This document shows positions 3,961 through 63,590 of a stretch of DNA of 64,000 nt, one piece after another; the stretch's first letter is position 1, and the number at the start of each line of letters is the position of its first letter. The stretch is taken from positions 1,706-65,705 of the forward strand of contig DATDVZ010000007.1 in assembly GCA_036517475.1 (NCBI GenBank), written 5' to 3'. The DNA is from Minisyncoccota bacterium (GTDB lineage Bacteria; Patescibacteriota; Minisyncoccia; Phycocordibacterales; Zambryskibacteraceae). The notes below the pieces were generated by a model. That model was not told the origin of the DNA, ran no database searches, and worked only from the letters and a program-made list of their open reading frames with translations. The position numbers and the translations under genes were made by a program.

Positions 3961-5283
3961 TTATACTTTGACGACTTGACTAATTCGGCCTCTGTTGCCG
4001 AATATCCAGATATACCTTTCTATCTCCTCTTTCGGGCCGGTGGCTTTGCCAATATTGTCAGAAAGTTTAACGCAAGGTCTGCCATTTGCACTTACTACTT
4101 TGCAAACCATCGAGAAGGGACGAAGAAGCGGATACTTGGGGTGACAGCCTCTAAAATCATTTCCAAAGAGTGTCCCCCACCCGAATGATAGGTTGATCTT
4201 ATCTCCGAGCTCTTTTTGAATTTCAATCATTGAACCAACATCAAGGCCATCTGATGGAATCATTAGCTTGGACTTAGGATCAACACCGTGGCGCTTGAGC
4301 CAGTTAATATAGCGATACCCTGACTGCACTGGATCTCCTGAATCCTGACGGAAGCCCTTCCAGTCAAGGAGAAACTTCGGAGCATTCTCAAAAAACTGCG
4401 CTGTCCCATATGTATCGGGTAAGAAAATTCTCAGCCCCGGACCATATACCTCTTGCCAAAGAAGAGGCACTCTGTACTGCTGCCGAAGCATTTCCTGCTC
4501 TGAATCCTCTAGAGCAGTAAGGACCATGGGAAGTTCATGGGCATTAGTGCCGATGGGAATCAAATCATAGTGAAATGCCATCCATGTATTTGATGTTCCC
4601 ACAAGCAACTCTGGAAAATTTCTCGCCGTAAAACCAACAGCATGCTTCTGCCAGAGAAAACTATGCCGCCTTCTCTGACAGAAATCTGAAAAGCGAATAT
4701 TGTTATCTGAAAGCAGTTCAAGCTTTCGGATAAGTTTGCCCTCTGCATTTTCATAAATCTCAATCAGATCCTGATCCGGAATACTTCTCATCACAGCGCG
4801 GTTATAGAGCTCATTGACAATTGCTACAGCAATAGTCTCCCACATGGTTGCCGTCTCCCACGGCCCACTGAATTCGAGCTCAATACTCTCGCCTTTCATT
4901 TCAAGCTTGTAGGGAGAGAGCCGAAAGTTTTCGAGAAACTCAAGGTAGCTTTCATTGAACATATTTGCCTGATAGAGATTGATCCCCCGCAGGTAATATA
5001 AGTCAGTGCGCCTGAATGCAACTCCCATCATGTAATCAAGACTTTGACGTAAGTCATCTTCCCTGATCAGGGCTCCAACTAGCACATCAGGATCGCGGAT
5101 GATGAGTTTAAATGTAACCTCTGTACCGCGAAACTTGATAAATATAAACTGTCCCATGGTGAACTTATAGAAGTCCACATCCATGAGAGAGCGTACCGGA
5201 GGGTGAAAACTCGTCTGCGTCTCGCGCACCATGTCTACAAAATCTCTGGCTTTTAATCCCTTCTCAAACTCGGCGGTCTGCAT
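3961..5283 (-). CDS. pncB: nicotinate phosphoribosyltransferase
   Basis: 440 aa; DVDFYKFTM, SGPWETATMWE, GTSNTW, IGTNAHE, RQDSGDP, LSFGWGT, KLSDNIGK match conserved NAPRTase blocks. Confidence 0.8.
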   Translation of the reverse strand: MQTAEFEKGLKARDFVDMVRETQTSFHPPVRSLMDVDFYKFTMGQFIFIKFRGTEVTFKLIIRDPDVLVGALIREDDLRQSLDYMMGVAFRRTDLYYLRGINLYQANMFNESYLEFLENFRLSPYKLEMKGESIELEFSGPWETATMWETIAVAIVNELYNRAVMRSIPDQDLIEIYENAEGKLIRKLELLSDNNIRFSDFCQRRRHSFLWQKHAVGFTARNFPELLVGTSNTWMAFHYDLIPIGTNAHELPMVLTALEDSEQEMLRQQYRVPLLWQEVYGPGLRIFLPDTYGTAQFFENAPKFLLDWKGFRQDSGDPVQSGYRYINWLKRHGVDPKSKLMIPSDGLDVGSMIEIQKELGDKINLSFGWGTLFGNDFRGCHPKYPLLRPFSMVCKVVSANGRPCVKLSDNIGKATGPKEEIERYIWIFGNRGRISQVVKV

Positions 5284-5479: not shown

Positions 5480-7426
5480 ATGAGAAATAAAAAGTCAAAT
5501 GCAAATGAATACGGCTTCCTACGCGTTGCCTCAGTAGTACCCGCTCTTAAGCTTGGCAATATTTCATATAATGAAATTGAGATTGAAAAAAGTACCAGAA
5601 GTGCCGAGTCGAAGGGCGCAAGACTTGTGGTTTTTCCCGAGCTTTCAGTAACCGGATATTCTATCGGCGATCTCTTGCATCAGGAAATTATTCTTAAAGA
5701 AACCAAAAAGGCGCTATTATCACTGGCACTGAAATTAAAAAAACTTAATTGTGTTGTGGTGATCGGAGCTCCCCTAGTTATCACCGATAAGCTATTTAAT
5801 ACTGCTGTTGCAATTTCTAAAGGAAAAATAATTGCAATCGTGCCAAAAACCTATCTTCCAAGTTATAAGGAATTCTATGAGAAAAGATGGTTTTCTTCAG
5901 GGAGAGATTGTTCTGTAACAGAGACAATGATAGGTAACCAGAGGGTCTCCGTCGGTACAGATATTCTCCTTAAGATAGATGGCACTCTTGTGGCAATTGA
6001 AATATGTGAAGATCTCTGGAGTGCGCTGCCACCGAGTTCATATCATGCCCTCTCGGGTGCGGGCGTTATTGCCAACCTTTCATCATCAAATGAACTTGTC
6101 GGAAAAGCGCAATACAGGAAGGATTTGATAAAGAATCAATCAGCTAGATGCATTGCTGGATATGTTTACAGCGCATCCGGAGTAAATGAATCCACGATGG
6201 ATATTGTTTTTTCCGGTCATGCAATAATTGCCGAGAACGGGACAATACTTAATGAAGCGGAAACCTTCAGGGGCGATACCCAGATGATTATTTCTGACAT
6301 TGATATTGAACACATACTTGCTGACAGAGAAAGAATTACAAGTTTTGCCGATACGGCATCAGCTAATTTCAGAACTTACAGAACCTTTGAAATCAAACTA
6401 AGCCCAAAAGCAAAAACAGATCTGCTAAGAAGTGTGCCACAAAGACCTTTCATACCTGAAACGAAAGAAGAGTTATATGAAGTAGCCCAAGAGGTATTTA
6501 ATATTCAGGTTGCGGGACTCTCAACAAGGCTCAATCATGCAAAAATAAAAAACGCAGTAATCGGACTCTCCGGAGGGCTTGATTCCACTCTTGCCCTCCT
6601 TGTTGCAATTGAGGCTTTCAAAAAAATTTCCTTGCCTTTAAAAAACATCCACGCATTTACAATGCCGGGATTTGGGACAACCAAAACTACAAAATCAAGC
6701 GCTCACCTGCTCTCAAAGTCAGTGGGAATTAATATAGAGGAGATTGATATTACAGATGGAGTAAGATCGCATTTCAGAGATATAAAGCACAATGAAAGAG
6801 TCGAGGATCAGACATTTGAAAACGTGCAGGCAAGATACAGAACAATGCTTCTTCTAAATAAAGCAAACCAGCTTAGAGCCATTATGATCGGCACTGGAGA
6901 TCTTTCAGAAATCGCTCTTGGCTGGACTACATTTGGCGGCGATCATATGTCCCATTACAATGTGAACTGCGGAGTTCCAAAAACTTTGGTCAAGCACCTA
7001 ATCCAATGGTTTGCCGTAGAATCACAAGATAAAAAATTAAAAACAATACTAAATAAAATTCTTGAAACACCGATTTCTCCGGAACTTAAAAGGCATAGCA
7101 AGGGTAAGATCATTCATAAAACAGAAGATATAATAGGGCCATACGAATTACATGATTTTTTCCTTTACCACTTTATCCGCTGGGGATCAAAGCCTAAGAA
7201 AATATTATTTCTTGCAAAATACGCCTTTTTGAAAAAATACTCTGAACAAAAAATTAAGAATACTCTCAAAATTTTCATAGAAAGATTTTTCAACAACCAA
7301 TGGAAGCGCTCCGTCATGCCAGACGGGCCAAAGGTCGGATCAGTTTCACTTTCACCCCGAGGCGACTGGAGAATGCCATCTGATGCGGATGCAAAACTCT
7401 GGATCAGAGATACTGACACGGCTTGA
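5480..7426 (+). CDS. nadE: glutamine-dependent NAD+ synthetase (nitrilase-like domain + NAD synthetase domain)
   Basis: 648 aa; N-terminal CN-hydrolase motifs (VFPELSVTGY, EICEDLW), C-terminal PP-loop GLSGGLDSTLALLVA. Confidence 0.85.
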   Translation: MRNKKSNANEYGFLRVASVVPALKLGNISYNEIEIEKSTRSAESKGARLVVFPELSVTGYSIGDLLHQEIILKETKKALLSLALKLKKLNCVVVIGAPLVITDKLFNTAVAISKGKIIAIVPKTYLPSYKEFYEKRWFSSGRDCSVTETMIGNQRVSVGTDILLKIDGTLVAIEICEDLWSALPPSSYHALSGAGVIANLSSSNELVGKAQYRKDLIKNQSARCIAGYVYSASGVNESTMDIVFSGHAIIAENGTILNEAETFRGDTQMIISDIDIEHILADRERITSFADTASANFRTYRTFEIKLSPKAKTDLLRSVPQRPFIPETKEELYEVAQEVFNIQVAGLSTRLNHAKIKNAVIGLSGGLDSTLALLVAIEAFKKISLPLKNIHAFTMPGFGTTKTTKSSAHLLSKSVGINIEEIDITDGVRSHFRDIKHNERVEDQTFENVQARYRTMLLLNKANQLRAIMIGTGDLSEIALGWTTFGGDHMSHYNVNCGVPKTLVKHLIQWFAVESQDKKLKTILNKILETPISPELKRHSKGKIIHKTEDIIGPYELHDFFLYHFIRWGSKPKKILFLAKYAFLKKYSEQKIKNTLKIFIERFFNNQWKRSVMPDGPKVGSVSLSPRGDWRMPSDADAKLWIRDTDTA

Positions 7427-16698: not shown

Positions 16699-17319
16699 CT
16701 ATATTTTCTCGTAAAATACGGCTTTCCCTTTTATTCCAACTTGTCTTATCCTCCCCTCACTCTCCAACATTGAAAGATATCTTGTGGCGGTAGCATCAGA
16801 GACATGCAAAAGCTTCTCTACTTCATCGTTCGTGATCCTTGTTCGCTTCGCAAATAATTCCATAATTTTTTCAATTTTTTTTCTCTTCCTTGCCCGAATT
16901 ACATTTCCGGCTTTAGTAAGAAGTTCGCGAACTGGATTTCGAGTAAACGGCTCAATTGGTGGGAATTGAGCCGTTTGATTTAAAACCGGAGGTGTTTCCT
17001 TGGGTAGCGGAGAGGACAGAAGTAAATCCTCAGATTTTTCTTCAGTATTTTCAGGGGCTGTAGTTTCTGCAGGTGCTGTCGCATCACCCCCTGAAACCAC
17101 TTCCGTGGTTTCAGGGGGTATGTTTTCATTTATCGCATCAACCGGCACATCAACTGTTTCAGAACTTGCTTGTGGTGAGTTAATCGAATCCACCTGCGGT
17201 AAGCTTGTCGAATCCACCTGTGGTGAGCTAGTCGAATCCACTTGCGTCTCCGCAGGCACTTCAGGAATCACAGTAATAGGATTTTGATCAGAATTTTGAT
17301 TTTCTGGTTCATTAGTCAT
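16699..17319 (-). CDS. winged-helix DNA-binding protein with N-terminal tandem peptide repeats
   Basis: Repeats VDSTSSPQ/VDSTSLPQ/VDSINSPQ; C-terminus EVEKLLHVSDATATRYLSMLESEGRIRQ typical wHTH. Confidence 0.45.
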   Translation of the reverse strand: MTNEPENQNSDQNPITVIPEVPAETQVDSTSSPQVDSTSLPQVDSINSPQASSETVDVPVDAINENIPPETTEVVSGGDATAPAETTAPENTEEKSEDLLLSSPLPKETPPVLNQTAQFPPIEPFTRNPVRELLTKAGNVIRARKRKKIEKIMELFAKRTRITNDEVEKLLHVSDATATRYLSMLESEGRIRQVGIKGKAVFYEKI

Positions 17320-17762
17320 GTTGAAATTATATCAATTCTCTCAATAAGGGATTTAAATATTTTGGCAATTGTCGCGATAAGATATGTATTCTATGCGTAA
17401 CCAGCTTATTTGAACACCGTGATTGGTACAAGTTACTGCATACGCCCTATCACGATGTATACTTTCAAAGTCATGCCAACTTGTACGAAGATTCAAAGCA
17501 AATATAACTATAATCAACGAAATAATTATCCCTAACAAATATAGATATTTCTTCATATTAAAAATTTATTTGTTAATCCAGCACCCGATAAACACTAACA
17601 TCCCCATCTTTTACCATTAAAATAATATAGTAAATTTATTATAAACAAACTATATGCTAATTTGCGCCTGCCCCGTAATGAACGTAGTTCTACTATTGGG
17701 GTAAATAAGCATATAGTTTGACTTAGGGTTTATAGTTATAAAAATTAAATAAAAAACCCGTA

Positions 17763-18134
17763 TTAACGGGCTCTCTTTTGGAGAATTCTTTCTCGCGCTT
17801 CTGATGTTGCATTCAATCCTTTTTGCCGGATTTCTTCAGGGCTATCATAGGCATTCACCACAACAAATGCAACCGCTAATCGCTCCCTCTGACGTCTGAT
17901 TTGAAAATAGCGGATTGCTCTGTATGAACTTTTTATCTGAACAAAGATCTTACCAACATCCGTATGTGCAATAGCGTCAATTCCCCTATAATCCTCTTCT
18001 CTACTTGCTCTTTCAATTCTGTAAAGCCATTCCGGCAAAGGTACACCTTGTGAAAAAGCAGAGAAGAATTTGTTTTCATTAATTCTCCCCCTCTCTTGGC
18101 CGATTTTCCCAATCAAGCTTCTTACTCTAGACAC
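17763..18134 (-). CDS. small PD-(D/E)xK nuclease-fold-like protein, hypothetical
   Basis: GIDAIAHTD...IFVQIKSS matches D...(D/E)xK arrangement; terminator hairpin CCCGTTAATACGGG+T-run downstream. Confidence 0.35.
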   Translation of the reverse strand: MSRVRSLIGKIGQERGRINENKFFSAFSQGVPLPEWLYRIERASREEDYRGIDAIAHTDVGKIFVQIKSSYRAIRYFQIRRQRERLAVAFVVVNAYDSPEEIRQKGLNATSEARERILQKRAR

Positions 18135-18258
18135 TACCCCTCCTTTTTAGATATCTTAAACTAATTTAAAACAATCCCCCAATTTTGTCAAAAAATTTTT
18201 TAGAATTTTGATTCTCTTATTCGTCTAGCAAGATCAAATTATATCAGTCCACAAATCT

Positions 18259-18286
18259 ATTCTCTTATTCTCGAGAATAAGAGAAT
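18259..18286. repeat. 28-bp perfect palindrome ATTCTCTTATTCTCGAGAATAAGAGAAT, copy A (plus conserved flank to 18310)
   Basis: Exact repeat of 19550-19577; flank TTGGCAAAGATTATCAGCG also shared. Confidence 0.8.
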
Positions 18287-18303
18287 AGATTTGGCAAAGA
18301 TTA

Positions 18304-18642
18304 TCAGCGGAGTTGGCTGCCCAGATCAATTGAAGGTTTCTTGGGTTCAATAAGCACCCAGCCGTCTCCCTCATTATTGCGGAAGCCGAGTGTAAGGACT
18401 TCAGAAGCAAAAGGTCCAATTTGTTTTGGCGAAAAATTTATTACGCAACACACTAAAGAATTCAATAATTCTTCTTTAGTATGCGCTCCGACAGCTTGAA
18501 CACTGGATTGTTTCGTCCCTACTTCAGTTCCAAAGTCAATTTTTAATTTATATGCCGGTTTTTTCGCTTCAGGAAAATCCGAAACCTCAACCACTTTCCC
18601 CACCCGAATATCAACTTTCTCAAAATCTTCGAATGTAATCAT
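18304..18642 (-). CDS. tRNA-binding domain protein (CsaA/Trbp111/EMAP-II-like OB fold)
   Basis: KVDIRVGKVVEV...; characteristic myf-domain pattern. Confidence 0.65.
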   Translation of the reverse strand: MITFEDFEKVDIRVGKVVEVSDFPEAKKPAYKLKIDFGTEVGTKQSSVQAVGAHTKEELLNSLVCCVINFSPKQIGPFASEVLTLGFRNNEGDGWVLIEPKKPSIDLGSQLR

Positions 18643-18689
18643 AAATTTAGTATAGCAAAACTGCCTCGTCTTAACTTAAGACTTTTAAT

Positions 18690-18848
18690 ATAGACCCTCG
18701 GGGCAAGCCCCGAGGTAATTAATACCGAGCTCATTCCATTCGCACTGAAGCGCGGCGAAGCCGCGCGGTATTAAACCTATATTAGCTCCTCGGCTCGGAA
18801 GTAAAAAAGTTTACTTTCTTACTTCTCTCGCTCTACGTCGCTAATAAA
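18690..18848 (+). repeat. structured GC-rich intergenic repeat, family R, copy 1
   Basis: ATAGACCCTCGGGGCAAGCCCCGAGG hairpin, TAATACCG...CGGTATTA enclosing GCGCGGCGAAGCCGCGC hairpin, conserved 3' module ...TCTCGCTCTACGTCGCTAATAA; near-identical ends to 26594-26756 (inverted) and 49098-49252. Confidence 0.8.
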
Positions 18849-18881
18849 AAAACCCCTCCTTATAAATGAGGGGGTGTGGGA

Positions 18882-19502
18882 TTAAACCCTTCGCTTGTTG
18901 GTATAGAGGCTTCTCCACCAACTTGAGGGTGACTCGTCGTACATTTCTTTACAAAGAGTTTTCGCTGATTCTGTAGTAAGGTATTTCATGTATGCATATG
19001 GCCGTGGAGTACTTTTGCCGGCAAGCCATGCAGCCGCCTCTTTATTGCCCTGCCACTCGTATTCTCGCAGCAGTAGGACTTGGTCTAGAACGTCGGCATC
19101 TTTGGCAACAAGGGCTTCGCGACTCTGGCGAGCAGCATATTCACGAGCAATTTCTGCTAGCTCTGGGAAAGGTAATCCGCCGAGCTGCTCATCAAGCACA
19201 GCCGCCTCGTCTTCACTTACATAGCGCTTGTGAATCCAGTTGTGATCATTAGTTCTGGATTCGCCGGTATCGTGTAGAAGGCACATCATGACAACTTTCT
19301 GCCAGTCCACTCCTTCCATTTTGGCAAGAAAGTAGCCAATGAACATTACTCGAAATGAATGCGTGGCAATGTTATCGGACATGTCATCAGTTAAGAGCGA
19401 CTGGCGATGAATCCGAGCAACTTTTCGCATCGTGCCAACTTCAAACAGAAACTGCACAATCCTCTCTGTGTCCACTTTTTCCTCCAAACAAGATCTGAAC
19501 AC
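18882..19502 (-). CDS. HD-domain phosphohydrolase, YfbR-like 5'-deoxynucleotidase
   Basis: HSFRV...LLHDTGE...D HD motif arrangement; GTG start inferred. Confidence 0.6.
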   Translation of the reverse strand: MFRSCLEEKVDTERIVQFLFEVGTMRKVARIHRQSLLTDDMSDNIATHSFRVMFIGYFLAKMEGVDWQKVVMMCLLHDTGESRTNDHNWIHKRYVSEDEAAVLDEQLGGLPFPELAEIAREYAARQSREALVAKDADVLDQVLLLREYEWQGNKEAAAWLAGKSTPRPYAYMKYLTTESAKTLCKEMYDESPSSWWRSLYTNKRRV

Positions 19503-19549
19503 AACCCTAGCATTTTTACATTAATTTTTAAAGCCCTCACTACAAAACC

Positions 19550-19577
19550 ATTCTCTTATTCTCGAGAATAAGAGAAT
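19550..19577. repeat. 28-bp perfect palindrome, copy B (about 45 nt upstream of HD gene)
   Basis: Identical to copy A; shared flanks CACTACAAA (5') and GATTTTGCAAAGATTATCAGCG (3'). Confidence 0.8.
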
Positions 19578-19676
19578 GGATTTTGCAAAGATTATCAGCG
19601 ATACTGGCTCAAGCAACACTAGCCCATTCCGGTTTTCTTAAGAAAACCGGAATTGATTTTAAAATAATCATTCCAG

Positions 19677-20198
19677 TTAATCAGAGGAAACCTCAAGTCT
19701 TCCAGTAATAACATATCCCGCAGATTCTAGTGCTTTCTTTTTATTGGAATTATTAGAAAATGACACTATTGTTTTTGATATATAAAGGTCTCCAAGTACT
19801 TCAACTTCAAACCTATAATCATTTGGATCAGATTCAACAAGTCCGATTTTTTTGAGAGCTTGTGAGGTGCTAATACCTTCAATACGCTTAATTTCCATGG
19901 TCTTTATTTTATTTTCTAAACCAACCCCCCTACCTTCATCACAGTGAGAATAAACTATTACTCCGCCTTTGTTATCTGCAATTGCTTTCATTGCTTTTGT
20001 AAGTTGAAGAGCACAATTACATTGTGTTGAGTGAAACGCCTCGCCAAAAAGACAAGTCGAGTGAATGCGTACAACGGGATTTCCAGCCTCCACATTGCCC
20101 AAGGAAAGTGAAACAAAATCTTTTCCACTAATTTTGTGATAATTGATTTTAAACTGACCGAATTCAGTCTGAATAATTGTCGTGGCTGTAATTGACAT
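19677..20198 (-). CDS. ribA: GTP cyclohydrolase II
   Basis: RIHSTCLFGEAFHSTQCNCALQL matches RxHSECLTGDxxxSxRCDCGxQL zinc/GTP-binding signature. Confidence 0.7.
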   Translation of the reverse strand: MSITATTIIQTEFGQFKINYHKISGKDFVSLSLGNVEAGNPVVRIHSTCLFGEAFHSTQCNCALQLTKAMKAIADNKGGVIVYSHCDEGRGVGLENKIKTMEIKRIEGISTSQALKKIGLVESDPNDYRFEVEVLGDLYISKTIVSFSNNSNKKKALESAGYVITGRLEVSSD

Positions 20199-20219
20199 AA
20201 TTTTAGAAAATGAATTGGA

Positions 20220-20996
20220 TTAATTAATCTGTCTCATCCCCCATTTCACAGTTGTCAGTTTTTCAATTTTCTCAAAAATCAAAAATTCTGCCGCAATGCC
20301 AACCAATGCGATTATAATGATCCCCGCTATTACCTGATCGAACTTGAAAACCCACTGAGAAAGCCAGATGTATTTACCAAGCCCCCCAGCAGTTACAACA
20401 AGCATTTCTGCCCCAACAAGCGATCGCCACGCTGAACCAAAACCGGTGCGCAGTCCGCTTAAGATATTGGGCAAAGAACCCGGTAGAACAACCATCATTA
20501 CTGTTTTAAATGTACTCAATTTAAAATTTTTGGCAGTGAGCCACCAAACCTGGTCAATACTTCTTACTCCACCGATCACACTGTAAATTATTTTTGTAAA
20601 ACTGGATATCGCAACCATCGCCCAGATCGTTTCGCGAGTAAAACCAAAAATAAGAATGAGAAGCGGAAGCCAGGCTAAAGACGGAATAAGATATACGGCA
20701 GATATTATCGGTGAGAACATTTTCCTCACTGTTTCATTTATACCGATAAGGGTTCCCAGAATAACTGCAATTAGAGATGCAAAAACAAAGGCTGGGAAAA
20801 TATTCAATAAACTAATAATAAAAAGTCTTGGCAAAACACCGTTTATCAATAGTTCCCAGAATTTAGGGAAAACCTCACTCGGAGGAGGAAAGAGCATGGT
20901 GAAGAAATTACTTCCGGTAGCTAACAACTGCCATATAATTATTACGGCTATAAAAGGCAGAGCGCCCAGAAGTATATTTTTAGTTTTGTCCGCCAT
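20220..20996 (-). CDS. ABC transporter permease (NitT/TauT family)
   Basis: 258 aa, 6 TM, EAA-like loop; operon with SBP and ATPase. Confidence 0.7.
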   Translation of the reverse strand: MADKTKNILLGALPFIAVIIIWQLLATGSNFFTMLFPPPSEVFPKFWELLINGVLPRLFIISLLNIFPAFVFASLIAVILGTLIGINETVRKMFSPIISAVYLIPSLAWLPLLILIFGFTRETIWAMVAISSFTKIIYSVIGGVRSIDQVWWLTAKNFKLSTFKTVMMVVLPGSLPNILSGLRTGFGSAWRSLVGAEMLVVTAGGLGKYIWLSQWVFKFDQVIAGIIIIALVGIAAEFLIFEKIEKLTTVKWGMRQIN

Positions 20997-21996
20997 AAAT
21001 TTCTTCCTGTAATTTTTTTAATTTGTCTGCAAACCTTAAATCATATATATCTTCCAGAGACAGGTCTTTGTCTATGATTCCCAGTTCTTTAGACTTTTTG
21101 ACCATCTCCATGCCAATTTTAGGGTCCTGCCAAACCGTGTTAATTACTGATGAGTTCCATTCGGACACTATTGTGTCTGGAGAATAGTCTACCGCCCCAT
21201 TGGTTTGTTCAATAATATCTTCCGACACAAGTATCGCTGCGGCGAAAGGATCGTTCTTGATAAGGGCGTGTGCCTCGCCATAAGCGTCAAAGAATTTGTC
21301 TAGCAAATCCTGGTTTTCATTGAGATATGCTGTGGTAACTAGAATTGAAGTTCTGGGTTGTAGTTGTTTGAAATGTTGGCTATTTTCCCATTCTGGTAAA
21401 ACAATCGCGCCTTCCTCAATAAATCTACTTGCATCTTGCGCCCCCACAATAGCAGCATCTGACAATTTTCTTTGCATTAGTGTTGAAACTCGGTAAGGAC
21501 CTTCAATGTCTATAAAGTTTATTTTACTGACATCTATATTATCTTTGTCCATTGCCACTCTAAAAGGGACATCATCTGAACCACCCGGAGAGACCGAGAC
21601 TGTTTTCCCGTATAAATCCCTAAAACTATTGATATTACTATCTGGCCTGACAAATATATATGTTGCAGAAAGAGACATTGGAGTAATAACTCTGGCGGGA
21701 ACTCCGCTTGCAATAATTGGAATAAAATCAACCATTCCGGCAGAACCGATATCAATATGCCCAGAGATCAACGCCAGCCTTACTTCTGCTCCGCCTTTCA
21801 TTGGCACCATCATTACTTCTAGATCGTGTTTTTTGAAATATCCGCCTTCTGAGGCCACCACAATAGCTGAGGAACCCAGACTTTGCGCACTATATCCGAT
21901 TCTAATCTCACTGTTAGTAATTGGCTTATCCTTTAATAATATTGCTCCAATAATTACTATTCCAATAACTACAATTATATATATTGATTTATTCAT
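20980..21996 (-). CDS. ABC transporter substrate-binding protein (NMT1/THI5-like)
   Basis: 338 aa, N-terminal signal/TM, periplasmic-binding-protein type 2 pattern. Confidence 0.55.
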   Translation of the reverse strand: MNKSIYIIVVIGIVIIGAILLKDKPITNSEIRIGYSAQSLGSSAIVVASEGGYFKKHDLEVMMVPMKGGAEVRLALISGHIDIGSAGMVDFIPIIASGVPARVITPMSLSATYIFVRPDSNINSFRDLYGKTVSVSPGGSDDVPFRVAMDKDNIDVSKINFIDIEGPYRVSTLMQRKLSDAAIVGAQDASRFIEEGAIVLPEWENSQHFKQLQPRTSILVTTAYLNENQDLLDKFFDAYGEAHALIKNDPFAAAILVSEDIIEQTNGAVDYSPDTIVSEWNSSVINTVWQDPKIGMEMVKKSKELGIIDKDLSLEDIYDLRFADKLKKLQEEIYGGQN

Positions 21997-22808
21997 ATTT
22001 TTTTAATTTGGGTTTCTAAAATCTGACCCAATACCTGCCTGTCGCTCAAATCACTATTAAGCGCCAGGTCAAACTCCAAAGCGATTTCTTTTTCGATGTC
22101 TTTGGCGATAGCGACAAACCCAGAGCTTCTTGGATCGCGTGGACGTGGCAGATCTATTTTATAAGTTTTTCTTATTTTTGCTGGCAAATTTGAGAAAAGG
22201 TAAATCCGATCAGCCAGGGTCAGAGCTTCATTGACGCTGTGAGTCACAAAAATTATTGTTTTTTTTGTTTCCTGCCAGATTTTTTCAAGATTTGATCTCA
22301 TATACTTCCTATACTCAGGATCAAGTGCAGAAAATGGTTCATCCAGAAGAAGGATTTTAGGGTTTGAAATAAGAGATCTAGCAATTATCACTTTTTGTCT
22401 CATGCCCCCAGAAAGCTTGTGCGGGTACCAATCTTTATATTTCTCGAGTCCCACCAGATTCAGATACTTCAAGACCATTTTATTTTTCTCTGCCGATAGT
22501 AGGTTTGAGTTCTCTAAGCCAAAAACAATATTTCCATGGACAGTTCTCCATGGAAATAGTGATGAGTCTTGAAATATCATCATTTTATCTGTATCTGGAC
22601 CAATGACTTTCTGCCCACCAAGAGTAATCTCACCCGAAGTCGGCTCAAGAAAACCTGCTATAAGATATAAAAACACAGTCTTACCAGAGCCACTCGGACC
22701 AAGTATGCAAACAAATTCACCCATCTCAACCTCCATACTTATCTGATCAATAACATGGTGTTGATTAGAGTCCTCAAAAACCTTACTTAGGTCTTTAACT
22801 TTCAACAT
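21993..22808 (-). CDS. ABC transporter ATP-binding protein
   Basis: Walker A GPSGSGKT, signature LSGGMRQKV, Walker B LLLDEPFSALD. Confidence 0.8.
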   Translation of the reverse strand: MLKVKDLSKVFEDSNQHHVIDQISMEVEMGEFVCILGPSGSGKTVFLYLIAGFLEPTSGEITLGGQKVIGPDTDKMMIFQDSSLFPWRTVHGNIVFGLENSNLLSAEKNKMVLKYLNLVGLEKYKDWYPHKLSGGMRQKVIIARSLISNPKILLLDEPFSALDPEYRKYMRSNLEKIWQETKKTIIFVTHSVNEALTLADRIYLFSNLPAKIRKTYKIDLPRPRDPRSSGFVAIAKDIEKEIALEFDLALNSDLSDRQVLGQILETQIKKI

Positions 22809-22845
22809 TATTTTAGTCTTTCAGAACTAGTAACTATGTCAAGTA

Positions 22846-23322
22846 TTAATCCAGATTAAAATGTTTTGAAAAATCTTCTTTTTCCCAAGGAAAAACAATT
22901 TTCTCATCATCTTCACTCAAAACGTAAAAATCAGGAAGCTTTTGGCATTTATTTTTATTAGTAGCAAGAGTGGCTGTTTTAATTTCAGATGGTTCATATT
23001 TTTTTACAATAATCTCTGCGACTGTTTTAAGAGTGAAACCTGTGCTTGAGATTTCATCAACTAACAATAATTTTTTGTTTTTTAAGTTGATATCAGGTAG
23101 GTAAGTAATTTTTATTTCTTTTTTATTGTCCTTTTCCATTAATTTTGATGAAACAATCAACACATTACTTATGCCGATCTTCTTTGATAAGAAATATAGA
23201 GGTATTAGCCCACCTGTTGCAAGACCAACTATGTAATCGGGGTTAAAATCACTTGTCTTGATTACTGAAGCCAACGAGTTAGCAGCGACTTCAACTTCTT
23301 CCCATGTAATTTTTCTAACCAT
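22846..23322 (-). CDS. type I phosphoribosyltransferase (purine PRTase-like)
   Basis: PRPP-binding motif LLLVDEISSTGFTLK. Confidence 0.6.
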   Translation of the reverse strand: MVRKITWEEVEVAANSLASVIKTSDFNPDYIVGLATGGLIPLYFLSKKIGISNVLIVSSKLMEKDNKKEIKITYLPDINLKNKKLLLVDEISSTGFTLKTVAEIIVKKYEPSEIKTATLATNKNKCQKLPDFYVLSEDDEKIVFPWEKEDFSKHFNLD

Positions 23323-23346
23323 AGATCAATCAATAAATCATTAATA

Positions 23347-23811
23347 CTAGAAATTTCCTACTTTATTAATTTTATATTCAATAATATTTCCATTATCTAA
23401 TAGGAATTCTCCCTTGAAGCAAGTGTTATCAATAACATACTGCAACCAGAGCCTGTCAGTTGACCACATTTGATTAAATGGTATCTCAGCAAATTTAAAC
23501 CATTTGGGTTTCATCTCGTCAGTTTCCATCGGGGTACCGCTAAAATCTTCAATCTTAAATATGTGGGTTTCAATTTTCTTTTGCTCATCCTGAGAAAAAG
23601 AAAAATTTAAAACACCGATTTTTTTTAGTTTGTTTGGAATTACTTTGCTTTCTTCAACTACTTCACGTATCGCAGCATCTTCGATCATTTCATTGCCTTC
23701 AACTTTGCCACCAAACCCATTCCATTTCCCTACTCCTGAACCTCTTTTTTTCAGCCCAAGTAAGATAGAATGTTCATTAGATAGAAACGAGAGAGTCATG
23801 ACTTTTTTCAT
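23347..23811 (-). CDS. Nudix hydrolase, MutT-like
   Basis: Nudix box GGKVEGNEMIEDAAIREVVEESKV. Confidence 0.65.
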   Translation of the reverse strand: MKKVMTLSFLSNEHSILLGLKKRGSGVGKWNGFGGKVEGNEMIEDAAIREVVEESKVIPNKLKKIGVLNFSFSQDEQKKIETHIFKIEDFSGTPMETDEMKPKWFKFAEIPFNQMWSTDRLWLQYVIDNTCFKGEFLLDNGNIIEYKINKVGNF

Positions 23812-23901
23812 AAATTTTCAAAAAAACTCTAGCATTTTTAACCCGTCATCGCCACTCTCCATTGCGGACAAGTCTTATTTTTTATACCCCACTACAAATT
23901 T

Positions 23902-23929
23902 ATTCTCTTATTCTCGAGAATACAAGAAT
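23902..23929. repeat. degenerate copy C of the 28-bp palindrome (ATTCTCTTATTCTCGAGAATACAAGAAT)
   Basis: Left arm identical, right arm 2 mismatches; same 5' flank ACTACAAAT; sits between divergent genes 23811(-) and 24082(+). Confidence 0.7.
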
Positions 23930-24081
23930 GGTTTAAATCATCAAAATTGCACTTCATAAAGAATTCATTTTTATACTATGAAATGATTATTATTTTGTTA
24001 TAGTGTTGTCATAATGCGTTAATGTAATCGTCATTATAAAAGTGCGTTATTTAATTATTTATCATTTATAAAATCAAGAAT

Positions 24082-24849: not shown

Positions 24850-24985
24850 CCCGTACTAAATTAATTGACTGATAACAAACAACTTATCCGATATAGCGGA
24901 TAAGTTGTTTTCAAATAACTTGATATTAAAATAATAATCTTTATAATCTTGAACCTGTGTTACATTAATAATATATAAATATTTT

Positions 24986-26593: not shown

Positions 26594-26756
26594 GTTTATT
26601 AGCGACGTAGAGCGAGAGAGGTAAAAAAGTAAACTTTTTTACTTCCGAGCCGAGGAGCTAATATAGGTTTAATACCGCCTGTCTTTGTCGCGCTTTTAGT
26701 GCGAGCGATAGGGAGTTCGGTATTAATTACCTCGGGGCTTTGCCCCGAGGGTCTAT
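26594..26756 (-). repeat. structured GC-rich intergenic repeat, family R, copy 2 (inverted)
   Basis: Reverse complement matches copy 1 over both terminal modules with a divergent central hairpin; 3' end of element lies about 20 nt from ATL gene ATG. Confidence 0.8.
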
Positions 26757-26836
26757 ATCCTGCCATAAGTAGTTACCTTTCCTCTGGGAATTCTTAAAGC
26801 CATTATAAGAACCCTTTCATTAAAACTGAGCATCTT

Positions 26837-38321: not shown

Positions 38322-38576
38322 TTATAATACTGGTTTACCAAACTCTATCAAATTTAGTTTCTTCTCACGTCGCCAACCTTTGAGTTGAGCCTCTCGTTTT
38401 AGTGCTGAACTTCTATCTTGATGTTTTTCTGTATATAACACGCTAACGACTTTACTTGATTTCGTATAATGACCACCTTTTCCGTTTTTGTGCTCATTAA
38501 AGCGCCTATTAACATCTGTTGTAATGCCTGTATATAAAGTTCCATTTCCACATTTTAAAATATATACAAAATACAT
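38322..38576 (-). CDS. GIY-YIG nuclease domain protein (YhbQ/UPF0213-like)
   Basis: FVYILKCGNGTLYTGITTDVNRRFNEH GIY-YIG core. Confidence 0.7.
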   Translation of the reverse strand: MYFVYILKCGNGTLYTGITTDVNRRFNEHKNGKGGHYTKSSKVVSVLYTEKHQDRSSALKREAQLKGWRREKKLNLIEFGKPVL

Positions 38577-38670
38577 AAAGGCTTCGGTTCCGGGCTTCGA
38601 CTGATCTCAGCCGAATGTCCTCAGCCCACTTCGCCTGGCTCGCACTGAGCGAGCGTAGCGAGTCGAAGTG

Positions 38671-38741
38671 CTGCCGGACTTGGACTCGAACCAAGATACT
38701 CGCCTCCAAAGGGCGATGTCCTACCATTAGACGATCCGGCA
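38671..38741 (-). tRNA. tRNA-Gln (anticodon UUG)
   Basis: Manual fold: acceptor UGCCGGA/UCCGGCA, D arm GUCU..GGAC, anticodon stem UCGCC/GGCGA with loop CUUUGGA, T arm CUUGG-UUCGAGU-CCAAG, discriminator G; CCA not encoded. Confidence 0.7.
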
Positions 38742-38777: not shown

Positions 38778-38807
38778 TATTTGTTAATTCGCTCGAATTA
38801 ACAAATA
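38778..38807. promoter_or_regulatory. 30-bp palindrome TATTTGTTAATTCG-CT-CGAATTAACAAATA (downstream copy)
   Basis: Near-identical to 39128-39157; between ArsR stop and tRNA-Gln. Confidence 0.55.
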
Positions 38808-38838: not shown

Positions 38839-39099
38839 CTATAACTCCTCAATTATTTTTGAAGCAATTCTTTCTAACTTTTTTGATAATGAATAATACA
38901 TCTCAAGGCTTCTCTGTTCCTTGTCTACTATATCCACGTTAAATAAAATCAAGAGATGTCTAGAGGTAGCACTGAATGATAGTTTTATCGCACCGGCAAT
39001 CTCGCCTACAGTTGCTTCGTTATTCTTTTTTAAATATGAAAGTATCGCAAGTCTCCGTTTATTACCAATTGCCTTTAATATTTTTTCTAATTGCTTCAT
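38839..39099 (-). CDS. ArsR/SmtB-family transcriptional regulator
   Basis: 86 aa; RLAILSYLKKNNEATVGEIAGAIKLSFSATSRHL HTH. Confidence 0.7.
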   Translation of the reverse strand: MKQLEKILKAIGNKRRLAILSYLKKNNEATVGEIAGAIKLSFSATSRHLLILFNVDIVDKEQRSLEMYYSLSKKLERIASKIIEEL

Positions 39100-39127
39100 T
39101 ATTATTGTTTTTTATTTTTAATAGTCT

Positions 39128-39157
39128 TATTTGTTAATTCGTTCGAATTAACAAATA
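39128..39157. promoter_or_regulatory. 30-bp palindrome TATTTGTTAATTCG-TT-CGAATTAACAAATA, candidate ArsR operator
   Basis: 12-2-12 inverted repeat about 30 nt upstream of ArsR ATG. Confidence 0.55.
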
Positions 39158-39174
39158 ATGATGTTGATAGTATT

Positions 39175-49000: not shown

Positions 49001-49097
49001 CAAAATTAAGAGATTAAAATCCAAAAGAGGAAAATCTAAAATTTAGAATACGTGAAACAAAAACCCGCATTTCGCGGGTTTTTGTTTTGCATGCAAT

Positions 49098-49252
49098 ATA
49101 GTCCCTCGTGGCAAGCCCCGAGGTAATTACGGAACTCGCTTCGCTTATCCATTTAGCGCGGCAAGCCGCGCAGTATTGGACTATATTAGCTCCTCGGCTC
49201 GGAAATGGAAAAGTAAAACTCTTCCATTTCTCTCGCTCTACGTCGCTAATAA
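49098..49252 (+). repeat. structured GC-rich intergenic repeat, family R, copy 3
   Basis: ATAGTCCCTCGTGGCAAGCCCCGAGG..GCGCGGCAAGCCGCGC..TATATTAGCTCCTCGGCTCGGAA..TCTCGCTCTACGTCGCTAATAA. Confidence 0.8.
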
Positions 49253-50140: not shown

Positions 50141-50380
50141 ATGGAACCCCATCAAAAAGATCGTGAAAAAACAGCTATCTTTGAAAGAGCCTGTGCGGGT
50201 TGCAGAGCCGTTCTGCAGATCAATCCACAAAACATCAACCCAAGGATCCCGTATATTCTATGCCCTACCTGCGGACTTGAGTGTATGATTCCTCAGGACG
50301 CTATTTATATGGCCGAGCTGATTCTTAAGGAAAAAAGAAGAAAGTACGGCCGACGAAACAAAGCTATAAATCCCGAATAG
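50141..50380 (+). CDS. small zinc-ribbon protein
   Basis: CxxC...CxxC; terminator AAATCCCGAATAGGGATTTTTTT at 50368-50390. Confidence 0.4.
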   Translation: MEPHQKDREKTAIFERACAGCRAVLQINPQNINPRIPYILCPTCGLECMIPQDAIYMAELILKEKRRKYGRRNKAINPE

Positions 50381-50388
50381 GGATTTTT

Positions 50389-50700
50389 TTATAAACGACG
50401 TAGAGCGAGAGAAATGAAAAATTCTTATTTTTCATTTCCGAGCCGAGGAGTTTATATAGTATCCAATTATATAAACGACGTAGAGTGAAAAAGCGAAAAC
50501 ATGGAGCTTTTGCAAGGTCGGAGCACGACGGTGCGAGACAGGATCGAAAGATTTTTCAGTAGAAAAATACTTTTGATAGAGAAGTGAGAAAGTTTACTTT
50601 CTCACTTACGAGCCGAGGTGAGGAAGCGAATACATGGAGCCCATTCGGGTCTGAAAGACCCTCAGGGTCTTAAACGACTTCGCAAGACTTTGAGCTCCGA
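50389..50700 (-). repeat. family R repeats, two partial/variant copies in tandem (inverted orientation)
   Basis: TTATAAACGACGTAGAGCGAGAG...CCGAGCCGAGGAG (rc of 3' module) at 50389-50466 and a second rearranged copy 50471-50700. Confidence 0.6.
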
Positions 50701-50860
50701 TACTATCGGAGCGAAAAGTGTACAGTTCATGTAATGAAATTATATTGTACCAAGTTATATTGATATTTTTAAATTTTTTGAATGTTAACATTCTGTACGA
50801 TCGTACAAAATGTTAACATTGGTCTTTAAGTTGCCAACCTAGTTAAATTTGATTACAAAA

Positions 50861-59967: not shown

Positions 59968-60014
59968 TTTTTCTGGCTAAAAATTTAAATACAGAGGTAT
60001 AAGCAATTATTTTA

Positions 60015-60034
60015 TACTATGATATATCATAGTA
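60015..60034. repeat. 20-bp perfect palindrome TACTATGATATATCATAGTA (copy 1; 30-bp exact repeat with 61782-61811)
   Basis: Identical copy inside miaA; both within 1.8 kb of parB. Confidence 0.7.
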
Positions 60035-60069
60035 AAATAAAAAATTAAGACCTTAACTAAATAATAAAC

Positions 60070-61104
60070 TTAAACAGTAAAGTTTTTTATTGAATAAATA
60101 TCTTCTTCATCTTTCTTTTTCTCATCAATGGATCTATCATCTTCGAGCGTTAAATTCACTTCAGAATTTTGGGTCTTGTCCGAATCTGGGGTTGCTTGCC
60201 CTGTTAAATAATCCTGCTTTTGCAGGATTCCAGCTTCGCTGGATTTAACAGGGTTAATTGGTTGTAAGTTGTTAGTTGTAGGTTGCTGCAATATCTGAAT
60301 TAAACTTTTCAAATCCTCATTTGAAAAGAAATCAATCAAAATTTTTCCTCCCACTTCCTTTCTTTCAATCTGCACCCTTGTGCCGAGTGCCTCCTTTAGC
60401 TGCTCCTCCAAATCAATAGTTTCTGGGTCAATAGCATGTTCTTTTTTGCGGACTTTGTCATAGGCAATCCGGCGGGCAATTCCTTCCGCCTCGCGAACAG
60501 TAAGTCTTTTAAGAATTATTTCCTTAAACAAAACTCCCCTCTCATCCGGCCTGTCATTTAACATCATAAGCGGACGGGCATGACCTTCGGTGATCTTACC
60601 TCCCGAAAGTGCGTCCTGCATGTCTGAAGGAAGCGTCAGTAGTCGAAGACTGTTTGAAACATACTCGCGGCTTTTGCCGATTTTTTGGGCAATTAACTGA
60701 TGAGTAAAACCAAATTCATTTGCAAGCCTGTCAAAAGCCCTTGCTCGATCAATAGGATTTAGGTCTTCTCTTTGCAAGTTCTCAATAATTGAGAGCTCAA
60801 GCTTCATTAGGTCAGTGTCATCTCCGGTTTTTATGAGACACGGCACCTGGGAAAGGCCTGCCATTTTGGAGGCGCGCAGTCTTCTTTCTCCGGCAATAAG
60901 CTCGTACTTAACACCCATTCCGCCTTCTGGCTTTTCAAATTCTTTACGAGTTACAACTAATGCCTGAAGGACTCCGTACTGGCGGATTGAATCAGAGAGG
61001 CTCTGCATTTCAGCTTCGCCGAATTCACGGCGTGGTTGAAATGGGTTTGGCTCAATCTTATCAACATCGATCCAGAAAACCGAATCATTTAAAAATTGGG
61101 ACAT
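60070..61104 (-). CDS. parB: chromosome partitioning protein ParB/Spo0J
   Basis: ParB box GERRLRA, HTH, KIEPNPFQPRR N-terminal motif. Confidence 0.8.
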   Translation of the reverse strand: MSQFLNDSVFWIDVDKIEPNPFQPRREFGEAEMQSLSDSIRQYGVLQALVVTRKEFEKPEGGMGVKYELIAGERRLRASKMAGLSQVPCLIKTGDDTDLMKLELSIIENLQREDLNPIDRARAFDRLANEFGFTHQLIAQKIGKSREYVSNSLRLLTLPSDMQDALSGGKITEGHARPLMMLNDRPDERGVLFKEIILKRLTVREAEGIARRIAYDKVRKKEHAIDPETIDLEEQLKEALGTRVQIERKEVGGKILIDFFSNEDLKSLIQILQQPTTNNLQPINPVKSSEAGILQKQDYLTGQATPDSDKTQNSEVNLTLEDDRSIDEKKKDEEDIYSIKNFTV

Positions 61105-61494: not shown

Positions 61495-62460
61495 ATGAAA
61501 CCCAAAATTCTCGTTATTGTAGGACCCACAGCCTCCGGGAAAAGCAATTTGGCTGTAAAATTGGCCCTTCGACTTCGCTCAGGGCAAGCTCAAAAAATTG
61601 GAATTAAGGGTGGAGAAATAATTTCTGCTGATTCAAGGCAGGTTTATAAAGGACTAAATCTTGGAACAGGAAAAATTACAAAAAAAGAAATGCGAGGTGT
61701 CCCTCACCATTTACTTGATATTATAGACCCGAGGAAATCATTTTCAGTCTTTGATTTTGTAAAAAAAGCCAATCACGCAATTACTATGATATATCATAGT
61801 AAAAAATTGCCCATAATCGTTGGCGGAACTGGATTTTATATTGATGCTTTAGTTTATGATCAGAAATTTCCCAATGTAAAAGCCAACTTAAAACTGCGAA
61901 AAAAACTTCAAAAAATGAGTGCTAGCGAGCTTTATAAAATTTTAAAAAAGAAAGACTTAGCAAGAGCAAAAAGTGTTGATAGAAATAATAAAGTGAGGCT
62001 TATAAGAGCATTGGAAATTGTGGAAAAACTCGGAAAAGTCCCCAAATTAACTAACAACTTACAACCAACAACTTACAACGCATTATTAATTGGGTTAAAA
62101 TCTAATAATGAAATTCTGCGAAAAAATATTCACAAGAGACTGATTCAAAGAATAAAAAAAGGAATGATAAAAGAGGTCAAAAAATTGCACTCTGGAGGTC
62201 TTTCATGGAAACGTATGGAAGAATTAGGGCTTGAGTACCGTTATATAACAAGATTTTTGCAAAATAAAATAACTAAAATAGAGATGTCAAATCAGCTTGA
62301 ATCGTCCATCTGGCAATACTCACGCCGGCAGATTACTTGGTTTAAAAGAAATAAGCAAATACTCTGGTTTAATCCGGAAGAGAAAAATTCAAGTAAGAAA
62401 ATCGAAGATGTTGTAAAAAAATTAGTCCTTGACAAAAATAAAAAAGACGATATACTATAA
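61495..62460 (+). CDS. miaA: tRNA dimethylallyltransferase
   Basis: P-loop GPTASGKS, ADSRQVYKGLNLGTGK; ORF-track N-terminal extension (from 61396) rejected because it reads through tRNA-Leu. Confidence 0.8.
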   Translation: MKPKILVIVGPTASGKSNLAVKLALRLRSGQAQKIGIKGGEIISADSRQVYKGLNLGTGKITKKEMRGVPHHLLDIIDPRKSFSVFDFVKKANHAITMIYHSKKLPIIVGGTGFYIDALVYDQKFPNVKANLKLRKKLQKMSASELYKILKKKDLARAKSVDRNNKVRLIRALEIVEKLGKVPKLTNNLQPTTYNALLIGLKSNNEILRKNIHKRLIQRIKKGMIKEVKKLHSGGLSWKRMEELGLEYRYITRFLQNKITKIEMSNQLESSIWQYSRRQITWFKRNKQILWFNPEEKNSSKKIEDVVKKLVLDKNKKDDIL

Positions 62461-63547: not shown

Positions 63548-63590
63548 CTAATCTATTCTAATGTTCTTAAGAACATTAGAATAGATTAAT
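63548..63590. promoter_or_regulatory. 36-bp perfect palindrome ATCTATTCTAATGTTC-TTAA-GAACATTAGAATAGAT
   Basis: Between stop of 63586..63840 and start of rpmG; operator or bidirectional terminator-like hairpin. Confidence 0.4.

Follow-up and report, generated by a model that had tools for sequence, protein, structure and literature searches.

The 64,000-nucleotide stretch of Minisyncoccota DNA analysed here (the window) carries a 28-bp palindrome, ATTCTCTTATTCTCGAGAATAAGAGAAT, at three places in a region where every gene between 17763 and 23811 lies on the minus strand. In the order of these genes, the site termed copy C is followed by a six-gene unit, copy B, an HD_3/YfbR-like phosphohydrolase gene, a repeat of ~165 nt, a tRNA_bind gene, copy A and an open reading frame (ORF) of 123 aa. 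The unit headed by copy C (19677-23811, minus strand, gaps between genes of at most 37 nt) encodes a MutT-like Nudix protein, a purine-type phosphoribosyltransferase, an ABC ATPase, an NMT1-type binding protein, a permease and a GTP cyclohydrolase II-like protein. Copy B heads the phosphohydrolase gene (18882-19502, minus strand, assigned by Pfam) and copy A heads the 123-aa ORF (17763-18134, minus strand); the stop codon of the tRNA_bind gene (18304-18642, minus strand) is 17 nt before copy A. A sequence-only reading of the region had named the HD and Nudix products, and both names are borne out by Pfam (HD_3/YfbR-like and NUDIX). Its PD-(D/E)xK-like label for the 123-aa ORF gained no support from Pfam, NCBIfam or PDB sequence searches, and the ORF is left without a family match.

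The 28-mer is exact at 18259-18286 (copy A) and 19550-19577 (copy B) and has two mismatches at 23902-23929 (copy C, ATTCTCTTATTCTCGAGAATACAAGAAT), so the three copies first reported are real; as palindromes they are recorded without strand. No match to the 28-mer was found in 100 dinucleotide-preserving shuffles, and none is expected by chance. Copy A consists of four hexamers, ATTCTC TT ATTCTC and GAGAAT AA GAGAAT. The symmetry of copy A spans 42 bp (18252-18293), and that of copy B 40 bp with one bulge (19544-19583). Copies A and B have 68 nt in common at 88% identity (18251-18318 and 19542-19609), including GATTT(G/T)GCAAAGATTATCAGCG and the final tRNA_bind codons, which read AGCCAACTCCGCTGA in A and AGCCAGTATCGCTGA in B. 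This alignment confirms that the flank of copy A covers the C-terminal codons of the tRNA_bind gene and that a decayed version of the gene end stands at copy B (19578-19609, minus strand, …SQYR and stop against …SQLR and stop). The presence of this remnant beside copy B indicates a local duplication; a duplication of ~68 bp, bringing the site into a second promoter region, is therefore supported as the origin of the A/B pair. Of the conserved flanks proposed by the sequence-only reading, the one common to A and B holds. The element CACTACAAA, expected in every copy, is exact in B and C only, copy A having TCCACAAA.

The next minus-strand start codon is 124 nt away from copy A (123-aa ORF) and 90 nt away from copy C (Nudix gene). 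For copy B and the HD gene the distance is 47 nt if translation begins at GTG 19502, and 74 nt if it begins at GTG 19475, in front of which a Shine-Dalgarno sequence is found. The HD gene probably starts at GTG 19475 rather than 19502, GGAGG being located 5 nt upstream. A -10-like hexamer is found on the gene side of all three copies at an offset of 15-19 nt. Beside copy A it belongs to an extended -10 element, TGATATAAT (18238-18246, minus strand), which is separated from the palindrome edge by 12 nt, its hexamer by 15 nt. Copy C has TATAAA at the same 15-nt offset (23881-23886, minus strand, by sequence reading), and copy B a weaker TAAAAA at 19 nt.

Further promoter-like elements lie closer to the genes. 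An extended -10-like TGCTAGGGT precedes the HD_3 gene (19504-19512, minus strand) with the edge of copy B 37 nt upstream; an element of this TGCTAGRRT type also precedes a tRNA in locus L085. A second -10-like element, TGCTAGAGT, is read just before the Nudix start codon (23827-23835, minus strand), and a consensus scan alone gives an alternative sigma-70-like promoter, TTGACA-17-TAAATT, before the 123-aa ORF (18163-18191, minus strand). Downstream of the extended -10 of copy A there is a lone half-site-like ATTCTCTTATTCGT (18211-18224, plus strand) with 12 of 14 bases matching. The promoter region by copy A (18202-18246) is also 76% identical over 45 nt to 17290-17334, the leaderless promoter (TGATATAAT, 6 nt, ATG) of a 206-aa gene (16699-17319) that encodes a C-terminal winged helix-turn-helix (wHTH) and contains a 24-nt tandem repeat (17171-17242).

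The palindrome is not confined to this genome. One genome per species (GTDB) was scanned with the pattern ATTCTCNNATTCTCGAGAATNNRAGAAT, which is strict and undercounts, and 63 loci in ~40 genomes were obtained, nearly all from Patescibacteria: Parcubacteria/Paceibacterota, Saccharibacteria, Moranbacteria, Staskawiczbacteria, Nomurabacteria and Berkelbacteria. The commonest form across these loci is (A)AC ATTCTCACATTCTCGAGAATGTGAGAAT GT(T). Positions 7-8 and 21-22 vary yet remain complementary (AC/GT 32, TT/AA 21, AT/AT 11 and GT/AC 5), and the exact TT/AA form of the window was found on 22 metagenome contigs. From Saccharibacteria to Parcubacteria the 28-mer is nearly invariant. Strict sites are few, with seven on two scaffolds totalling 886 kb (JBAZPT) and one or two on contigs of 250-330 kb, which gives a density of roughly one per at least 100 kb. 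Most are intergenic (64/76, 84%), and many lie 3-30 nt past a stop codon. Their 5' flanks are rich in A and their 3' flanks in T, and the two flanks are complementary to each other more often than expected (83% against 49% at ±1, 76% against 44% at ±2, 59% against 37% at ±3), an effect that fades by ±8. The low copy number and the intergenic share show that the palindrome is no plain miniature inverted-repeat transposable element (MITE), an outcome for which the sequence-only reading had allowed. Among 2.9 million viral contigs (IMG/VR), no form of the 28-mer was matched, and a viral origin of the palindrome was ruled out on this ground.

When all ORFs of the 63 loci were clustered, the sole strongly recurrent family was a wHTH protein of ~88-110 aa, present in 16-18 loci; small GIY-YIG proteins (6 loci) and dcw genes came next. 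One family protein reads MKNSKQIEKHLKGVANHRRIDILLLISKSRGITLEQISESLNCNFKTVSGHTLKLVSAGLVNKDYKGRAILHSLSPYGKIFVKFIADFKRL, and the member P0001 begins MKKRVRKNKKEKSARQLERHMKGV…. The family is borderline for Pfam HTH_5 (21.6, 23.5 and 29.1 bits, cut-off 22), matches Pfam MarR weakly at 25.3 and 35.7 bits (cut-off 24.6) and stays below the cut-off of 55 for NCBIfam HTH_metalloreg (ArsR/SmtB) with 36-45 bits. Its best PDB sequence matches are HlyU and CzrA. An AlphaFold2 model of P0001 (predicted local distance difference test score 85) has the order helix-helix-helix-hairpin-helix, with helices at residues 14-38, 44-51, 55-67 and 86-99 and strands at 71-76 and 79-84. This corresponds to the α1-α2-α3-αR-β hairpin-α5 succession of the ArsR/SmtB fold, αR being the recognition helix. 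Foldseek paired the model with SqrR, CadC, HlyU, SmtB, CzrA and PagR at E values of 1e-4 to 7e-4, and also with MarR proteins and AspA; it superposes on pNOB8 AspA with a root-mean-square deviation (rmsd) of 1.1-1.2 Å over 72-73 columns. At least 546 cluster representatives of the family are present in the protein database, under generic names throughout. The residues invariant in a 34-member alignment are K,Q,E,R,G,N,H,R,I,N,K,T,S,H,T,L,A,G,L,K,Y,G,V,H,S,P,Y,G,F. No α5 His/Asp/Glu cluster was found in this alignment and a single Cys before αR is common without being invariant, so no metal or metalloid site is apparent by a criterion that defines the metal-sensing ArsR/SmtB subgroups only.

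The genes of this family are linked to the palindrome. In the loci, all 26 of 26 have one directly upstream and most have another directly downstream, always a long palindrome without a loop in which ATTCTx-NN-xTTCTy is followed by rAGAAx-NN-xAGAAT. The same was observed when the search began with the protein: four members picked for their long contigs only (P0039, P0085, P0098 and P0033) gave exactly two sites in 12-20 kb in 4/4 loci, these two flanking sites being the only ones within ±10 kb of each gene. The upstream site ends 16 nt before the ATG (6 nt in L093), and the second site lies over the stop codon ~325 nt further on. An inverted repeat across its own promoter was seen with consistent geometry in 30/30 family genes, where binding is predicted. 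In three of the four protein-first loci, as at the majority of the regulator promoters, a -10 box (TATAAT or TAGAAT) stands 4 nt past the palindrome, and in L093 the outer hexamer TAGAAT itself occupies the -10 position. The ATG follows the -10 box by only 6-7 nt, and the mRNA is therefore leaderless. The site at the regulator gene spans the -35 region and the spacer with its centre near -30.5, which on sequence reads as the geometry of a repressor. When the sites are taken together, matches to the extended -10 concentrate at 0-14 nt from the edge of the palindrome.

Many of the regulator proteins end in …TFSHS, and it is the downstream operator, with its left half, that codes for these residues and the stop. 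In L092-L095, L020, L067/L079 and alignment A2, a change of the central CTCGAG to CTTGAG supplies the TGA stop. The encoding of …TFSHS and the stop by the operator means that gene and operator are physically fused.

Variation in the recognition helix is paralleled by variation in the half-site. Proteins with the helix KT[IV]SGHT accompany ATTCTC…GAGAAT sites (flanking forms ATTCTTGT…/ATTCTCTT…), and those with KTxSEHV or KTVADHV accompany sites with inner GTTCT[TC] and [AG]AGAAC (L008, L071 and L085). In genomes with TT/AA sites, the regulator gene has ATTCTTGTATTCTCGAGAATACAAGAAT on one side and a TT/AA site on the other (L047, L067/L079 and L069/L082). Copy C of the window combines the two, its left half being ATTCTCTTATTCTC and its right half GAGAATACAAGAAT; the right half equals the second operator variant flanking the regulator gene in those loci, which makes copy C a hybrid of ATTCTTGTATTCTCGAGAATACAAGAAT-type and TT/AA half-sites.

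The only tblastn match to the family in the window is a 35%-identical paralogue with a different palindrome. This ArsR/HTH_5 gene (38839-39099, minus strand, 86 aa, Pfam HTH_5 39.1 bits, αR SATSRHL) is sandwiched by TTATTTGTTAATTCG(C/T)TCGAATTAACAAATAA at 38778-38807 and 39127-39158, with half-sites TTGTTAATTCG and CGAATTAACAA. Its architecture is that of the ATTCTC-type regulator elsewhere. Downstream of it are a tRNA-Gln (38670-38741) and a small GIY-YIG gene (38322-38576). Other stand-alone GIY-YIG genes of ~85-95 aa were noted near sites or regulators in L010, L027, L037, L040, L046, L060 and L094; their recurrence may simply reflect the abundance of such genes in these genomes. Four-unit palindromes of other sequence also exist in the window, ATTCTAATGTTCTTAAGAACATTAGAAT at 63555-63582 and ATTCCGGTTTTCTTAAGAAAACCGGAAT at 19626-19653, and they probably belong to a second regulon, that of a paralogue. 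The former is 61 nt upstream of rpmG (L33; 63338-63493, minus strand) and shares 38 identical nt, flanks included, with a site in L085 that overlaps a paralogue regulator gene at its 3' end; the latter is 48 nt from copy B. Altogether 26 palindromes with arms of at least 12 nt were counted in the window, against 0-1 in shuffles, among them long AT-rich intergenic ones with no loop at 24877-24910, 50781-50820, 60012-60037 and 61781-61807. This suggests several additional operator-like sites.

Genes facing the sites in other genomes include orthologues of the Nudix gene in the window. In L059 the site faces a Nudix gene whose product is 46% identical to that of the window, and in L050 it faces an NTPase_I-T (ITPase) gene followed by a Nudix gene at 49% identity, so that Nudix is found behind sites in three lineages. 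Pfam further identified dUTPase (L060), MsrA (L019), MsrB (L047), an HhH-GPD glycosylase (L003) and CYTH proteins (L023 and L035) among the site-facing products. House-cleaning and oxidative-repair families account for 7/39 targets and for 9/491 other ORFs (Fisher p=5e-5, with categories chosen post hoc). TyrRS, LepA, Fmt, a P-type ATPase, GDH and ComEC, all unrelated to these functions, also face sites. The nucleotide-pool theme suggested by the sequence-only reading stands in part: Nudix, dUTPase and ITPase do recur near sites, and the regulon is wider than nucleotide-pool genes. The shared operator that it proposed gains from the phylum-wide motif, from a candidate cognate dimeric wHTH and from the sites before orthologous Nudix genes, where the motif was sought and found (L059 and the L050 operon).

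These observations are best accommodated, with a probability of about 0.7, if the three palindromes of the window are operators of a small ArsR-like regulator encoded in trans, outside the window. A Patescibacteria-specific ArsR/SmtB-like winged-helix protein of ~88-110 aa, encoded elsewhere in the genome, would bind them, presumably as a dimer or as two dimers, on four octamers, NNATTCTC NNATTCTC and GAGAATNN GAGAATNN. At its own gene, a site covering the -35 region and spacer up to the -10 of a mostly leaderless promoter would bring about autorepression, and the second site, over the stop codon, would head the next gene. With one site and one -10-like hexamer per unit, the three consecutive minus-strand units (Nudix to GTP cyclohydrolase II-like; HD hydrolase; 123-aa ORF) would therefore be co-regulated. 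If the -10 elements at 15 nt are the ones used, the palindrome centre in the window would be near -41.5 relative to a predicted, unmapped start, one helical turn upstream of its position at the regulator gene. Which promoters act in the window, and whether repression or activation results, can be proposed only conditionally, and a centre near -41.5 would suit activation as well. Binding of the protein to the DNA, the direction of regulation in the window and the signal sensed are likewise predictions made from sequence.

Several findings weigh against this reading. The ATTCTC-type regulator gene was not found by tblastn in the window or in its 3-4-kb extensions; for the dimeric DNA-binding protein that the sequence-only reading proposed to look for, a candidate is available in other genomes. 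Better -10 matches than those at 15-19 nt sit 37 nt from the palindrome at copy B and ~66 nt from it at copy C. The symmetry reaches 3-7 nt into the variable flanks, which a homodimer does not obviously need, and different symmetric spacer variants occur within single genomes. Extended symmetry of this kind could come from hairpin or cruciform formation, or from the 'correction' of quasi-palindromes by template switching, a process known in general. As many as 14/67 intergenic sites (~20%) are located between convergent genes, where a promoter is unexpected; this count is an upper bound, the ORF caller missing small genes such as rpmG. The site at 63555 was first taken as such a convergent case and was dropped, since it is upstream of rpmG, which the ORF threshold had missed. 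The target enrichment, resting on post-hoc categories, is only suggestive. Finally, about 12/76 sites are in frame inside long conserved genes, where they are translated as HSHILENVR[MI] or TFSHSRECEN; the hosts are TruB-like, TsaD, YchF, UvrC, Dus, PduL-like, O-antigen-ligase-like and TspO genes (L007, L028, L039, L056, L049, L036/L054, L026/L029 and L008).

A wider version of the operator hypothesis is possible, though doubtful. In it, a ~350-bp operator-regulator-operator cassette would have moved within and between Patescibacteria genomes and seeded solitary operators, some of them in frame in essential genes. It is similarly doubtful that such a cassette builds a lineage-variable regulon of nucleotide-pool and oxidative-damage hygiene under a phylum-wide master regulator, in organisms obliged to salvage every nucleotide, with the intragenic and convergent sites serving as roadblocks or insulators.

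Movement might also be the main explanation. The palindrome would then be mainly a selfish or mobile element, comparable to a repetitive extragenic palindrome (REP), a Rickettsia palindromic element (RPE) or a MITE, the wHTH gene with its two copies would be the 'master' unit, and regulation would be secondary. The constant ~350-bp module with the regulator gene between two copies, its occurrence ahead of unrelated genes, the symmetry continuing into the flanks, and the local duplication of A and B with a foreign flank all fit such an element. So do two of the intragenic cases: the site of L028 lies within a 14-aa insertion relative to E. coli TsaD, and the TruB-like gene has two site copies 48 nt apart in a tandem 48-nt duplication. 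Other intragenic cases point the opposite way, the YchF site causing no length change against solved YchF proteins (a gap of at most one residue) and the UvrC site presumably none either, judged against the E. coli sequence. In the PduL-like genes of two diverged Staskawiczbacteria, no identical run is longer than the site, which occupies one position in both, and the flanks are ~70% identical. About one strict site per at least 100 kb is also far from the tens to hundreds of copies that a mobile element should have, no transposase, REP-associated tyrosine transposase (RAYT) or recombinase recurs among the ORFs of the 63 loci, the 2.9 million viral contigs gave 0 matches, and the 90-aa wHTH has no catalytic domain. 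A mainly selfish nature is thus improbable. A mobile component is plausible given the duplication that produced A and B, the insertion in TsaD and the cassette-like unit; of the mobile or duplicated cassette imagined in the sequence-only reading, the duplication with its gene-end remnant is substantiated and active mobility is not demonstrated.

The protein and its site might instead organise DNA, the sites being centromere-like, roadblocks or insulators in the manner of AspA or ParB, or looping anchors. The superposition on AspA (rmsd 1.1-1.2 Å), the intragenic and convergent sites, the two sites ~325 bp apart that bracket the regulator gene, and the clustering of the three window sites 21-26 kb from a strand switch that coincides with the GC-skew minimum can be read in this sense. 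Promoter control is, however, what the tight and phase-consistent abutment of sites to -10 boxes, at 4 and 15 nt, typically indicates; no partition ATPase accompanies the pair, and a canonical ParB is encoded separately (60070-61104). As the chief function, DNA organisation is quite improbable, and it could coexist with an operator function.

The long hairpin could alternatively act in RNA, terminating transcription (in one or both directions), stabilising 3' ends or being processed by RNase III between transcription units. Copies A and B fold to stems of 19-21 bp with -25 to -26 kcal/mol (z about -7), copy B alone passes a terminator-like scan, and the position of many sites 3-30 nt past a stop codon and the A-rich 5' and T-rich 3' flanks agree with such a role. 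Copy C, in contrast, barely folds (-7.5 kcal/mol, z -1), and the stem sequence of a terminator should not stay conserved across a phylum. The number of T residues in the flank is independent of incoming transcription (3.84 against 4.15 T, p=0.28), and terminators of the usual kind, GC-rich with a loop and a T-run, exist in the genome. One-sided transitions displayed no preference for the strand that would retain G·U pairing (9 against 6, counted by eye), and they were dropped as evidence. The RNA-level role would leave the linkage to the wHTH gene and the match with its recognition helix unexplained and has very little probability. An intrinsic terminator in particular was rejected: the stems are AT-rich without a loop, the T-rich flanks are symmetric and copy C is unfolded.

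Recombination of a dif- or pdif-like site (11-6-11) with Xer-mobilisation of the flanked gene can nearly be dismissed, as the 28-bp length, a central 6 bp varying by subfamily (CTCGAG, CTCAAG, CTTAAG) and the gene between two sites are outweighed by three sites within 5.7 kb that abut -10 boxes, by co-variation of the site with the wHTH recognition helix and not with a recombinase, and by the lack of any recombinase recurrent near the sites in the 63 loci. The NrdR, LexA and NrtR regulons were rejected as well: the linked protein is a bare 90-aa wHTH without ATP-cone/Zn-ribbon, S24 peptidase or Nudix-wHTH architecture. The 28-mer does not match the NrdR box or the Gram-positive LexA box, which we take to be acaCwAtATaTwGtgt and GAAC-N4-GTTC.

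Some other features of the window were noted. The ~165-nt repeat, which has three internal hairpins, is present in three full copies and one partial copy (18687-18857, 26595-26758 inverted, 49095-49252 and 50379-50460), one of which separates the HD gene from the tRNA_bind gene; the repeat could represent a MITE-like element or a small RNA. An Rfam scan of the window at gathering thresholds returned three tRNAs only, and an E-value scan of 18640-18890 returned nothing credible. Gene orientation changes from minus to plus at ~44.7 kb, at the cumulative GC-skew minimum, and this may be the replication origin region. A DprA-like gene is read from sequence nearby, and to the right a topA-like large gene matches L014. 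Just left of the window is an NrtR-like Nudix-wHTH gene unrelated to the 28-mer (L086 12961-13653), close to NAD salvage genes within the window (NAPRTase 3961-5283, NAD synthase 5480-7426), and together these constitute a candidate for a separate regulon.

Patescibacteria (the Candidate Phyla Radiation, CPR) make up a very large share of bacterial diversity; they have tiny genomes and few regulators and depend on scavenged nucleotides. To our knowledge, almost nothing is known of their transcriptional control. Neither the motif nor the regulator clade was found described by full-text searches, and the motif-regulator pair is absent from the literature searched; a 2017 paper on the LexA regulon of Patescibacteria reportedly concerns a different protein. 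If correct, the operator hypothesis would provide a first handle on gene regulation in these uncultivated bacteria, including that of nucleotide-pool clean-up, and regulons would become predictable straight from metagenomes. It would mark MutT-like Nudix, HD nucleotidase, dUTPase, ITPase and methionine-sulfoxide repair as co-regulated, and it would offer a testable protein-DNA pair consisting of one 90-aa protein and one 28-mer. In the window, it would account for the same element on three consecutive transcription units.

Among known systems, the ArsR/SmtB repressors (SmtB, CzrA, CadC, HlyU, SqrR/BigR) are similar in their size of ~90-100 aa, their helix-helix-helix-hairpin-helix winged helix, the αR motif S-x-H-[TL]-x-x-L-x-x-A-G-L, and a palindrome over their own promoter with other sites at a handful of promoters. 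Unlike them, the present family falls below the NCBIfam cut-off and is borderline for Pfam HTH_5, and it lacks the α3N and α5 metal sites as well as a conserved Cys pair. Its operator has 28-32 bp in four octamers instead of a 12-2-12 repeat, its gene stands between two operators, the second of which encodes the C-terminal …TFSHS and stop, and its site sequence is conserved phylum-wide and is also found inside coding sequences. HrcA with CIRCE, LexA with the SOS box and NrdR with the NrdR box share a long palindrome that is nearly unchanged over deep divergence, a regulator gene that is its own target, and a small regulon leaning to maintenance and damage; they differ in protein family and site, and the regulon described here is far less uniform between genomes. 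The RPE resembles the palindrome in being sometimes translated in frame in conserved genes, and REP/RAYT in having a gene between two copies, as RAYT genes are placed between REPs. The palindrome is nonetheless far shorter than an RPE and has few copies, no transposase was found with it, and its YchF copy is no insertion. AspA of the Sulfolobus plasmid pNOB8 is among the closest structural matches and also binds a palindrome of more than 20 bp, but it has plasmid ParA/ParB partners and spreads on DNA, whereas the ArsR-like regulator is accompanied by neither such partners nor clustered arrays of sites.

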